A stretch of 64,000 bases of DNA from Pocillopora damicornis. Its lineage: Eukaryota. Made by a program: the position numbers and the translations under genes. The notes below the pieces were generated by a model. It searched no databases, had not been told where the DNA came from, and was given only the letters and a program-made list of their open reading frames with translations. The DNA lies in assembly GCF_003704095.1 (NCBI RefSeq), contig NW_020846942.1, positions 310,001 to 374,000 on the forward strand, read 5' to 3'. This document shows positions 20,140 to 38,334 of this stretch, one piece after another; the stretch's first letter is position 1, and each line of letters opens with the position of its first letter.

Positions 20140-21590
20140 TTATGGACTCAGAATTGTTCCACTTTCCACAAAATATTCGTAATTCTCAGCATTATTTAAA
20201 GCGTCTTTTGGATTTTCTATAGCGAGCCGTCTACAAGCATTTTGGCCGTATGCTAGATCATCCCTACGAGCCACTGCATGCCCCAATTCATGAACTATAA
20301 TCCCCATCTTTGTGTCATACCCAATCAGTGTGTCGGCCCTGTTGTACAATTCGCAAAGGAAGACTTTGCGAGTTCCAAAGTAAGCATAAGCATAGTCCCC
20401 ATCTTCACATTCTCTTCCATCAATAATGTAAGTAATTTTATCCTTTGATAATACTCGTTCCATTTTTTCAAAAACCCACTTGGGTTCATCAGCAGGAGAA
20501 GATCCAAACCAAGTTTTAGCTCTTCCGCGATCATTCTCAAGGTCTTGAATGGCTAACTTAATGTTTCTGTACACAGCTACAATAGCATGTTCTGTTTCAC
20601 TTTTCACATCGGGGGACCCTCCCTTTATTACATACTTAAGAGATGCCTTCAGGTCCTGACCTCTTCTGCTGTGAAAAATATGGTCTTCCAAAGCACCCTT
20701 GGTCACGCTTTCTTCAGTGCGCGCCCTTTGACCCGAGGTTCCCTTTATAAAATTCTTTTCATCAATTTCATAACTTAATACAGGGGACGATAAATGTTCT
20801 ATCTTAGTCTGGCGCACTGCCTTTTCAGTTACACTACCCTTTACATATTCTAAATAAGTGTCCACTGCTATAGAGTACAGGCCAGCCTTAGTCATGTCGT
20901 ACGCATCTGAAACGTCAAAGGTGGACGACACTGTTTGTCCGGATTTGACGAGCAAGTACTGATCAGGGCCTGGGGCGGAGCACTTTATATGGATACCATC
21001 GTACCGTAGCTTCATGCCATTGGAAGTGACTGACAGGCAATCCGATCTCAGTCCATCCAGCGGCGTACGCCATTTCAGCACAGAATAGTCTTGTTGGCCG
21101 TTGTTTCTCAAATGGAACTTACATTCAATCTTGTCGGACGTTGCAAATTTAGGTGCGCAGTCGATGTAGGAGGAGAATGCCCTGTGTAGAACAAAATTCC
21201 TTTTCGTTATAACCTGTCGAGTTCATTGTATAGCATACTCATCGTTTTAGCTGACTGATCTACTTACCATAACTACTAAGGGTGTAGTATAATGGCTCCC
21301 ATAACATTATTGTCTAAACAGTTCAAACTCTGCTTGTATTCAATTATTAAGACTTTAAACCTGTTTACGTCCAATGTTGTTATTTTATAATGCAAAGCTC
21401 TACCTTTCAAATTTATTATTATTGCAACCTTGCATGGGTCTTGCATAAGGCTGATTCAAATGATCACGATTCACAATATCTATTTGTAGAAAAAGCTCAC
21501 CACTTACGAGGTATCAGAAGTATCAAATTCCACCATTTGTCCTCCATCCACCATCTTCAATATGACAAACATCCACAGAAGTTTCATCAT
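20140..21590 (-). CDS. M35 aspzincin / peptidyl-Lys metalloendopeptidase-like preproprotein, paralog A (~374 aa)
   Basis: Exon1 21590-21508 MMKLLWMFVILKMVDGG (signal peptide), phase-2 intron, exon2 21181-20140. Prodomain LKWRTPLDG...YDGIHIK.APGPDQYLLV..GQTVSSTFDVSDAYD. Catalytic GIIVHELGHAVARRDDLAYG...ALNNAENYEYFVE (HExxH + DxxYG + NAxNxEY). Confidence 0.9.
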
Positions 21591-23976
21591 CGGCTTTAAA
21601 AAACAAAACATCTTTCTCAGCCTTTGTAAAACCATTTCTAACTCTATAAGTTTTGAATGGAGAGGGGTTGCTTCGAAAATTCTCTCTGCTCTTCTTAAAG
21701 GAGAGACGCTTTGCGAGCTTACTTACTTAAAATCACCCTCTCTGCTAAAAGCTTCTTTCAGGGACTTGGATGGACTTTAATACGGTGATAGAAAGGAAGC
21801 AGCAGAATGGTCCTCGAGTGTAACAATTCGATTCCTAACTTTTTCCTTTTTTCGTAGGGCTTTAGTAGTTCAATAAGATTTTCTTCGTAAATGTTCGGAG
21901 TCTATCACGACGTATGTTCTCAATAATTTCTATGATATTTTTTTTAAGAGAAACCGCATATTTTTATGAGGGCTGACATACTGATATCTTACTACAGTTT
22001 GTGAACTTCGCACCGATACATGCCACTGCAGTTAATCAAAAGTTTTAGTTCGACCTCAGAGTATTCCGAACCTTTACTTGTTTTTCAGAGTATCCAGTTA
22101 CCAGTTATATTTTGCAAACGGCCGTTCATTCTAACCACAGATCTTAGTCAGTTCTTAAGATAACTCCATCAAGCCAGGCTAAAGCTGTTTATCAAGTCGT
22201 TGCCGCCTATATGGTAACTGTAGGAAAAGATGACCTCACCTGTTTATCTCCGTTAGACGTGTAATGCTTAATGGTACCTCTTGCAAATGTGTACTATACA
22301 CTTGAGAGACGATGAAAAAAGAGTAAAACAATACGTTTTACAAACATTCTTTATTTCTCGTGACAACCATATGGTATCTATAACAATATCTGATTTTAAT
22401 AACTTATTTGGGATCTCCCCTGGCTGGTTATTCATCTTTCCGAGCCGATTGCTTACAATGCTCAAAAAGCCAATTAGTTCTGCATTTTCTTTTCATTTTG
22501 AGGTTGAGCAATTTTTCACTATTTCCTCCAACAACAACGATGTTCCGTGAATGCGAAATTTTTAACTTCCCTCCTGGCGACTTCTATGAATTAACAGTTG
22601 TTAACATAAACTTAACGTGGAAATTTGTAATAAATTGGCTTTAATGAAACGCTATTTATCAAAGTTGTGCGTTAGTTATTAGTTTTGTTAAGTAATTACT
22701 GGGAATTCATGAATTCACTGATAGCTTCTTCAAAAAGTACAAATACAATTCTTACTTAGTTCATGGATTGTCAAACAACTTGGGCAATTCTAAGAAGATT
22801 CCGTTTGATGACGATATTCGTTCTAGAAAAATGATGTCTAATTAGGTCCAAGTGAAAGGAAATTTCTTAAATTGCAACATTTCGAGAACAACGGGAAGTT
22901 TGCAAAAGCAAAAATGCAGCCTCAATGTTATATCAGAGCCAGGGTAAATATCCCCATTGGAAGCAATAACTTTTAATAAGCATGCCTACAGGACTTTAAA
23001 TTGTCTCTATGCGGAGAAAAATTCTTTTGTATCTTAGGAATAGATGAATAACCATTTTTTTTCATAGGAGCAGTGATTCAAAGCTGACTCTTAGCTTCGA
23101 CGGTTCAACAGTCATTCAACTACAACTGGTCTGTTCTTAAACGAAGAAAAAAAAAAAGAAGAAGGTAAGTTGATAGTGATAAACGTGCTCAATGCATAAA
23201 TTCCATGGTTTATAATGAAACTTATGAAAAAATTAAGTTATTTGCAACAGAAAGGAGAGCTTTGAAACACAAATATCTTGGTCATTAGCCAAATAGACAT
23301 AACTGACACTCAAAACTTCACACACTTGGAAATTTTAGAACAAAAAAAACTCCAAATTGAATTTTATTGTGCGGATCATTGTTATCTTTAACCTGATACG
23401 AATCAACGAAAAGGAATGGGAAGATTGTTTCTTTGCTAGAAAATTGTGATCAGATTCCGTTGTAGGAAAGAAGTACCCTCTAACAGCGCCCAACTAGGAT
23501 CTAATAAAGGTTGACAGTTGTGTTTCTTCTCACCCCAGCAAATTGTTTGCCCTTTTTTTCTTAAGTAACCTCTCGATTTTAGGTGCTCCATGTCTGTAGT
23601 CACAATTTTCCACAGTTTTCCTGCCCTGACGCCTATTCAAGAGAGACGTATTATGAGGTTTACCTAATCAAGGCCACATACGATAATCGCCTGGAAGAAT
23701 ATTTTTCGATATTTGATTACCTGGCTTAGACATCTCCCCATGAAACGGAAGGAAAAACTGAAACGTTATCGTTTAAACGCCAACAACTTTTATTCCCTTA
23801 TCTCCAGAGCAACGCCTTTTAAAAGGCTTACATCGTTTTAAATACTGATCTAAATGGAAGCCGGCCTACTTAACCCTTTTCGTTACCTAAGCTCAATCAT
23901 TTAATCCCCAGCCTTACATATAATTCTGGACTATTATCGAACCTCTTTCGAACAATATCCAAACCTTGCCAAGTGA

Positions 23977-36836: not shown

Positions 36837-36936
36837 NNNNNNNNNNNNNNNNNNNNNNNNNNNNNNNNNNNNNNNNNNNNNNNNNNNNNNNNNNNNNNNN
36901 NNNNNNNNNNNNNNNNNNNNNNNNNNNNNNNNNNNN

Positions 36937-38334
36937 GATTTGGTGCACTTTCAACATAATATTCGTAATTATCAGCATTTTTGACAGCCTTTTTCGCTTT
37001 TTTTTTAGCAAGTTTTTTACAAGAATGCTGACCGTATGTTATGTCGTCTGTGTAAGTTAATGCATGACTCAGCTCATGTATTATTATTCCCGCTTTGGTA
37101 TCAAACCCAACTAACGTTTCTGCCTTATTGAACGCTTTGCAGAAAAATATTTTTCGTGAACCAAGGTAAGTGTACGCAAACATATCTTTTTCGCATTTCT
37201 TTCCATTAAAGATATATATCATTTCTTTCCGTGCCAATTTCCTTTTCATATCTACGAATACGTTTTTTGCATCAATAGCGGTTTTCCCAAACCAAATTTT
37301 AGCTCTTTTGGGATTATTCTCGATATCTTGAATCGCTGACTTTATTTTAGTGTTAGCAGCCAAAATTGCCACTTCTGTTTCGTCTCTCAAGGCTTTAGAT
37401 CCTCCCTGTATGGAATATTTAATTTCGTTAGATTCTTCTCCTCTCCTATCAAATTCGACGTCCAAACCCTCCCGGGTAAGACTTTCCTCGTGAATTTCAT
37501 TTGATCTTTCAAGAGAACGCGTTCTTTGGCCCAGGGTTCGCTTCATGAAACTTCCATCAACTATCTCGTAACTTACAGAAGAAGATTTCAAATGAGCTAT
37601 GTTAGATTGGATAACTGGCTTTTTAATTACACTACCCGTAACATATTCTAAATAAGTGTCCACTGCCATAGAGTACAGGCCGGCTTTGGTCATGTCGTAC
37701 GCATCTGAAACGTCAAAGGTGGACGACACTGTTTGTCCAGGTTTGACGAGCAAGTATTGGTCAGGGCCTGGAGCGGAGCGCTTCGTGTAAATACCATCGT
37801 ATCGTAGCTTCTTGCCATTGGTATCGACCGCCAAGCAATTCGATCTCAGTCCATCCAGCGGTGTGCGCCATTTCAGTACTGAATAATCTTGTTTACCGTT
37901 GTTTCTCAAATAGAACTTACATTCAATCTTGTTGATAGTTTTGAAGCTCGGTGGACAATCAAGGAGACAGGAGAATATTCTGTATGAACAAATACCAATT
38001 GAAAAAGTATCACTTTTTTATAGTTCTACCTGTTTTGTCTCAGCTAATACCTAAACGTGGTATAAATGGGTCATATATCCTTGCGTTCAAGCCAATTAAA
38101 TTCTTGAATTTATTTACTCATTGACGTGGTCTTTTATAGTATCCAAAAGGTAACATAGCTTCGCCAAATGAAAAGTCCCATCAATATAAATCCCTCCTAT
38201 GCACCCTTGCAATAGAATTAATCATATTTTTCAAAAAAGAGGAAGGTGTAGCTTATTACATACGTGTTATCAGATTCTACGATTCTTTCTCCATCTGTTA
38301 TCGTCATTAGAAGCAATACCCACAAGAATCGCAT
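36937..38334 (-). CDS. M35 aspzincin / Lys-N-like preproprotein, paralog E; stop codon lost in gap
   Basis: Exon1 38334-38264 MRFLWVLLLMTITDGERIVESDN, exon2 37979 to the gap. Canonical motifs GFDTKAGIIIHELSHALTYTDDITYG and AVKNADNYEYYVES. Confidence 0.9.

Follow-up and report, generated by a model that had tools for sequence, protein, structure and literature searches.

The window analysed here, a 64,000-nucleotide stretch of the stony coral Pocillopora damicornis (RefSeq assembly GCF_003704095.1, contig NW_020846942.1, positions 310,001 to 374,000), harbors six gene copies derived from the aspzincin (M35) protease family, designated A to F, within window positions 20140-38334. The explanation that we favour, with a probability of about 0.7, is that this spliced host cluster stems from one bacterial gene in which an M35 protease was fused to a hemopexin-like tail, taken up early in animal evolution and likely shared with sponges, and that it would now comprise lysine-cutting enzymes (A, E and F), an inhibitor (C) and an altered protease (B). 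The cluster itself is real and host-encoded, and the sequence comparisons below make it very probable that it is a host gene family of bacterial origin.

The M35 copies and their catalytic residues

A sequence-only reading of this DNA had counted five paralogs, to which the fragment D has to be added. Copies A (20140..21587) and B (23977..25392), both on the minus strand, encode 373 amino acids each and are built alike, with a leader exon (21587-21508 in A, 25392-25313 in B), an intron (21507-21182 and 25312-25019) and a large exon (21181-20140 and 25018-23977); the splice is inferred from sequence in A and backed by RNA in B. Copy F (36937..38334, minus strand) encodes at least 371 amino acids in a leader exon (38334-38264) and an exon at 37979-36937, separated by an intron (38263-37980). 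In this assembly the catalytic domain is present in A, B and F only, where a single exon of ~1.04 kb holds both it and the prodomain. This layout, which the sequence-only reading had extended to the whole cluster, thus holds for these three copies, whereas C is reduced to a prodomain, D is broken and E runs into a gap.

Copy C (27947..29024, plus strand; 170 amino acids) has a leader exon (27947-28041), an intron (28042-28606) whose RNA joint was seen in one of four runs, and an exon (28607-29024) that terminates at the end of the prodomain with a TAG at 29022. Copy D (31633..32004, plus strand) retains the end of a prodomain and a linker, then goes out of frame and is stopped early; it follows directly on an N gap (31532-31631) that contains its 5' part. 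It is likely a pseudogene, and its counterparts from other assemblies (P0065, P0067 and P0068) are truncated as well. Copy E (36125..36836, plus strand) presents a leader exon (36125-36195), an intron (36196-36467) and an exon that runs from 36468 into the gap 36837-36936, in which its catalytic part falls. The prodomain of E is nevertheless found with an intact HELSH domain in P0005, from another assembly, and in the Pocillopora meandrina model P0003, which matches it at 99%. This public model P0003 seems to join pieces of D and E through false introns, and the existing annotations of the cluster are unreliable. E and F stand tail to tail in an inverted duplication (33571..40432; 33571-36836 versus 37611-40432) with blocks that are 84-87% identical. 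Upstream of E, 34942-35236 and 35478-35772 form a 96% identical direct copy flanking a gap and including the predicted exon of the 5' untranslated region (5'UTR) of this copy, which may be an assembly overlap. Genome searches, whose counts are lower bounds, revealed no additional M35 copy elsewhere in the 234-Mb assembly.

The five copies A, B, C, E and F have in common a phase-2 GT-AG intron just after the leader exon, the hydrophobic nature of which was judged by eye, and an AG acceptor lies 1-8 bases upstream of each ATG. The RNA check covered 20100-29900 with contigs from 4 of 23 listed runs, taken from four studies. The coding intron of B was spliced in three of the four runs and its 5'UTR intron (25399..25561, minus strand) in two, while a poly(A)-like end at 23769 appeared in one. 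Both earlier proposals, namely a sole coding intron after the signal peptide and a 5'UTR intron announced by an acceptor-like tract before the ATG, were thus borne out, the latter by RNA joints in B. For A, the four runs yielded scattered contigs and no splice joint, and the RNA cover of C is thin. Such contigs are unable to rank expression, and the deep cover of B is no evidence that it is expressed more highly.

The window contains 12 N gaps, several of them in and around the cluster, so that its linkage to the flanking genes MED14 and UGGT crosses scaffold gaps, a point in favour of contamination or of a misjoined symbiont contig. Such an origin is excluded for practical purposes, as the sequence-only reading had argued: the introns are spliceosomal and have RNA joints, the guanine-cytosine content of the cluster resembles that of its flanks, its repeats are common to the flanking host DNA, and paralogues lie on chromosome-size contigs in other corals, with eight named Oculina paralogues on a single 34-Mb contig and others on such a contig in Acropora.

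Assignment to the family is clear for the copies that keep the catalytic domain: A, B and F scored 88, 57 and 105 bits with the Pfam profile Aspzincin_M35 (PF14521), against a cut-off of 30 (three of five scanned copies). The family name given to the cluster from sequence alone therefore stands for these three, whereas C and E lack a catalytic domain in this assembly and D is truncated; a scan of NCBIfam gave no useful match. Copy A matches the solved zymogen of AsaP1 over both prodomain and catalytic domain (E=2e-27), as well as the structure 1g12, which we take to be a fungal Lys-N peptidase. HExxH and the downstream Asp that forms the third zinc ligand are present in A, B and F. In A, HELGH, the Asp ligand, the Tyr and the prodomain Lys are intact and the S1' pair is Glu/Glu, while every catalytic and S1' residue of F is canonical (Tyr, Asp, Glu). 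Both F and A thus possess the Tyr of DxxYG and the acidic S1' pair that characterize the Lys-N subfamily and to which roles have been assigned in Lys-N. Among 64 coral rows, the zinc ligands His, His and Asp are found in all 64, the Glu in 62, the Tyr in 58 and the prodomain Lys of the AsaP1 type (KR-x-x-P) in 60.

The coral genes thus resemble AsaP1 of Aeromonas (PDB 2x3a-c) and Lys-N (PDB 1g12), both of MEROPS M35, in the succession of a prodomain and an HExxH...DxxYG catalytic domain, and the prodomain Lys and S1' acidic pair of these enzymes are retained in F and most coral rows. They differ by their introns and separate leader exon and, in B, by the loss of the Tyr and S1' acids. The likeness to AsaP1 does not imply toxicity.

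In enzymes of this kind, the prodomain serves to fold the enzyme and, by placing a lysine in the S1' pocket, keeps it inactive. For A, E and F we predict a secreted zymogen that cuts at lysines. The leader would export the protein, cleavage near a dibasic site of the linker (RR in A and F) would release the enzyme, and the freed enzyme would cut before lysines outside the cell; separately made C could then rebind it and shield coral tissue. The most likely role, which we predict at about even odds, would be the degradation, in mucus or gut, of protein from microbes or prey. Remodelling of matrix or skeleton seems less likely, and a venom role improbable.

Distribution and probable bacterial origin of the family

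M35 genes were found across stony corals, in Pocillopora (including P. meandrina), Stylophora, Acropora and Oculina. When 1.84 billion representatives were searched with a profile, 2590 matched; in the best 150 of the 2590, corals are followed by bacterial-type proteins without leader, mixed with eukaryote-type proteins that have one. Thirty proteins were looked up, and the clusters that bear organism names are those of Amphimedon (P0109), Heliomicrobium (P0144) and Stylophora (P0021). The named eukaryotes among these 30 are only Scleractinia and Amphimedon, most matches being without organism label.

Such genes have a precedent in the sponge Amphimedon queenslandica, where Conaco et al. (2016; PMC4784904) described 76 M35 genes as clustered, provided with introns and more closely related to bacterial than to fungal ones, and this paper states in its text that the family is absent from other animals. 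The coral genes share with that expansion their bacterial type, their tandem arrangement among host genes and their spliceosomal introns, and the Amphimedon protein P0109 falls in the same clade; they differ in belonging to another phylum and in number, with six copies in the window versus 76 in the sponge (PMC4784904). Bacterial-type M35 is thus not new to animals, although the sequence-only reading had treated the case as unprecedented: the same story has been published for Amphimedon and, going by the main text of that paper (PMC4784904), corals are the second animal phylum concerned. No mention of a coral presence, of a hemopexin tail or of a prodomain-only copy was found in the passages of PMC4784904 consulted. 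Literature searches, restricted to articles apart from their supplements, retrieved no publication on M35 genes of corals. A thesis from the University of Queensland (~2018), reportedly on sponge aspzincins, may already note hemopexin fusions or non-sponge copies, which could lower the novelty.

Trees were built from hand-picked subsets (66 of 300 usable rows for M35 only, 27 full-length rows joining M35 and hemopexin, a mixed set of 44 rows, 42 tails and 57 prodomains), with the root placed by choice on AsaP1-like bacterial rows. A eukaryote-type clade uniting corals and Amphimedon is nested in bacteria with a support of 97/93 in the 66-row set, and it is recovered with 99/92 from the mixed set, 100/99 from the full-length rows, 84/93 from the tail alone and 97/82 from the prodomain alone. 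Group O is sister to corals in the full-length (88/82), tail (93/74), mixed (94/87) and prodomain (100/95) trees, without resolution in the 66-row tree. Together with the Pfam scores, the AsaP1 match and the RNA joints, these trees uphold the bacterial origin, host integration and tandem amplification that had been proposed from the sequence. As for a broad vertical distribution, named beforehand as the finding that would speak against transfer, the animal-type genes do form one clade, yet they are patchy among named taxa.

A hemopexin-like tail is carried by several Oculina copies and by many eukaryote-type proteins. The tail of the coral protein P0030 shares 57% identity with that of the Heliomicrobium protein P0144 and only 30-42% with the intron-split hemopexin exons of the coral's own genome, so that the fusion of M35 and hemopexin was likely the architecture of the donor. 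This protein of Heliomicrobium undosum (WP_161259037) has the same domain order, and its tail is 43-57% identical to those of six coral rows; it differs from the coral genes by being leaderless (by inspection), whereas the window copies have lost the tail. Indeed, no hemopexin remnant was found after any M35 copy in the window, and the other hemopexin matches in the genome are intron-split repeats of host type.

The closest named bacterial proteins that combine M35 and hemopexin, P0144 and L059, begin at the prodomain without leader (by inspection), whereas AsaP1-like myxobacterial M35 proteins carry their own signals. In L046, a genomic copy of sponge type, a single intronless frame encodes leader, enzyme and tail. 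Taken together, the leaderless bacterial proteins and the intronless L046 suggest that the animal leader was likely gained from the host and that the coral intron may be younger than the leader. The earlier idea that the acquired gene was fitted with host 5' exons is therefore plausible as regards the leader, but the intron need not have come with it.

An altered protease and a prodomain-only copy

Copy B is 74-75% identical to A and F over the prodomain, but just 32-33% over the catalytic part. It keeps HELTH and the Asp, while the Tyr is replaced by His and the two acidic residues of S1' by Ala. On these residues (His, Ala, Ala) B is not placed in the Lys-N subfamily, although it remains an aspzincin. 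The combination of His for Tyr with Ala/Ala occurs in 5 of the 64 coral rows, all of B type, and the catalytic Glu is changed to Gln in two, both representing the Stylophora B orthologue. In the cluster of this orthologue (P0021 / P0248, Stylophora pistillata XP_022785090), seven of eight members, the seven that were read, have HQLTH instead of HELTH; annotated as 'extracellular protease', it is likely a pseudo-protease. Owing to the loss of the Tyr and S1' acids, the divergent catalytic part and the Stylophora Gln, B is likely a protease with changed or fading activity, shifting its specificity or losing catalysis, yet still transcribed.

Copy C has an open frame, is spliced and terminates at the domain boundary. 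It retains the residues conserved in the prodomain, including the Lys of the KR motif, while being about 45% identical to the neighbouring copies. The sequence 3' of its stop still resembles the former linker. In the prodomain tree, C is sister to P0116 (182 amino acids, likewise without catalytic domain) with 100/98, and the pair branches below all other coral copies (81/85), which suggests that C represents an old prodomain-only lineage. A separate cluster of 14 members, that of P0103, consists of eukaryote-type proteins in which two M35 prodomains stand in tandem and the catalytic domain is absent, with several such proteins per contig; the first half of P0103 groups with coral and group O in the same tree and, on this placement, the catalytic domain was lost a second time in this cluster.

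Similar arrangements exist in bacteria (Myxococcota, Acidobacteriota, Aminicenantes, Pseudoalteromonas), where a gene for a prodomain only, with the KR motif kept, stands beside the protease; in Pseudoalteromonas it follows the M35 protease. A transfer of C together with such a bacterial gene was considered and is rejected by the prodomain tree, in which C descends from coral genes. The likeness between the two kinds of pair would therefore be convergent, and the bacterial solo genes themselves have a putative function only. An M35 gene followed by a secreted or lipoprotein prodomain-only gene without Pfam family was observed at loci L009, L010, L013, L015, L019, L026, L028-L031, L033-L035, L040, L041 and L061, and this looks like a widespread, apparently unnamed pair of protease and inhibitor in prokaryotes. 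One of them, L026, from a Methanobacterium bin, is an archaeal pair that groups with bacterial rows and may reflect a transfer or a binning error. Atlas clusters of 136-158 amino acids matched C with scores of 0.95-0.97; a match to BsuPI inhibitors (0.89) is a lead only.

Competing explanations and genomic setting

Several observations weigh against the favoured explanation, starting with the origin of the genes. On the M35 region alone, an approximately unbiased (AU) test does not reject moving corals to the bacterial side (p=0.283), and the branch joining the eukaryote-type rows is short (0.14). Joining coral to either bacterial pair is rejected with full-length rows (p=1.5e-6 and 9.4e-5), but these tests included just four bacterial rows, paired after the tree was seen. 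Only one sponge row bears an organism name (P0109); groups S, Sp, X and O are called eukaryote-type on account of their leaders, their sets of paralogues and their place in the trees, and the labels of most bacterial P rows likewise come from inspection. None of the trees knowingly included a fungal sequence. Moreover, P0328 is unstable, lying inside the clade in the 66-row tree and outside in the 27-row and 44-row trees. This Logan protein is a long-branch fusion of M35 and hemopexin, and its source could bear on the donor. The AU result on M35 and the short branch would also suit separate acquisitions by corals and sponges from related unsampled bacteria, for example symbionts, bearing the M35 and hemopexin fusion, as would the few bacterial proteins of this type in our searches (four rows) and the restriction of named animal matches to Scleractinia and Amphimedon. 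We hold this unlikely, since prodomain, tail, full-length and mixed data return the same clade and a split of coral and group O from sponge-type rows is weakly rejected on the mixed set (p=0.028). A slightly smaller chance is given to a single bacterial uptake in sponges followed by transfer from sponge to anthozoan, which would spare many losses in other animals and for which a sponge-coral transfer of a group I intron is cited in PMC4784904; on the contrary, coral rows are never nested inside sponge-type rows in any tree, and the prodomain tree separates the latter (98/88) from coral and group O (100/95). A fungal source, or an old eukaryotic inheritance common with fungal Lys-N enzymes, appears very improbable. 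A Basidiomycota-rich Atlas cluster does score 0.95, close to bacterial ones (0.97 and 0.96), and 1g12, presumably fungal, matches too, but the named full-length relatives that unite M35 and hemopexin are bacterial and the sponge genes are nearer to bacteria (PMC4784904). One origin shared with sponges is thus, by a modest preference, what the trees suggest. A bolder version, to which we attach a low probability, would have a single entry of M35 and hemopexin before the split of sponges and cnidarians, yielding a matrix metalloproteinase (MMP) look-alike later lost by most animals, while corals rebuilt from it the pairing of protease and free inhibitory prodomain that is also in use among bacteria, along with the pseudo-protease B.

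Other observations count against the functions proposed for B and C. It is a little short of an even chance, in our view, that C is a free inhibitor acting in trans on the mature enzyme. A complex model of C with the catalytic domain of F and zinc scored 0.88, versus 0.02 for the best of three controls, but since a like complex, the AsaP1 zymogen, is already solved, this pass was expected and shows likeness, not binding. In that model the Lys of C contacts both His, the Glu and the S1' Asp of F, with at least 96% contact agreement between runs and a partner pLDDT (predicted local distance difference test) of at least 88; among microbial pairs, 51 of 78 solved ones and 2 of 108 mismatched ones attained the pass mark, the corresponding figures for eukaryotes being 39 of 65 and 2 of 126. 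A solo prodomain gene adjoins the full M35 gene in 15 of 26 fetched prokaryotic loci, a proportion from a scan that relied on prodomain patterns, which favours loci with such genes, and 11 of the 15 are from related myxobacteria. P0116 is a single record that could be cut short. Among the coding variants listed for B, 11 of 18 change the amino acid and seven are silent, and constraint on this copy looks weak. These variants, the frameshift in D, the linker likeness persisting past the stop of C and the thin RNA cover of C would all fit a cluster in which C and D decay as pseudogenes while B drifts, leaving only A, E and F of importance and no inhibitor module. We judge such a decay rather doubtful, as C has kept an open frame, a spliced transcript and conserved prodomain residues despite its divergence from its neighbours, and its lineage stands at the base of the coral clade.

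Regarding the genomic setting, exons of MED14 (2614..13717, plus strand; its 5' exons lie just upstream of the window start) and of UGGT (44898..62455, minus strand, beyond copy F) flank the cluster, as had been recognized from the sequence, but MED14 is not its immediate neighbour: a gene with a fibrinogen domain (FReD; 16073..17579, minus strand, at least three exons) is located between the two. The FReD gene encodes a leader and a coiled stretch, a portion of its 5' region recurs with 71% identity at 19023-19355, and its presence beside proteases makes an immune neighbourhood possible. Upstream of it, 18305-18802 and 19367-19866 form a 500-base direct repeat (85% identical) adjoining N gaps. 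On the other side, between copy F and UGGT, an open frame of about 165 codons (40535-41030, plus strand) follows a gap.

The finding extends a family that the sole paper found describes, in its main text, from sponges only (PMC4784904) to stony corals, whose genes form one clade with those of sponges. It provides a testable case of a very old transfer into animals, either before the split of sponges and cnidarians or between the two. The cluster is also a small system amenable to assay, with the canonical enzymes A, E and F, the altered B and, in C, a candidate built-in inhibitor, and it may be of use in understanding coral feeding, mucus defence and tissue turnover.

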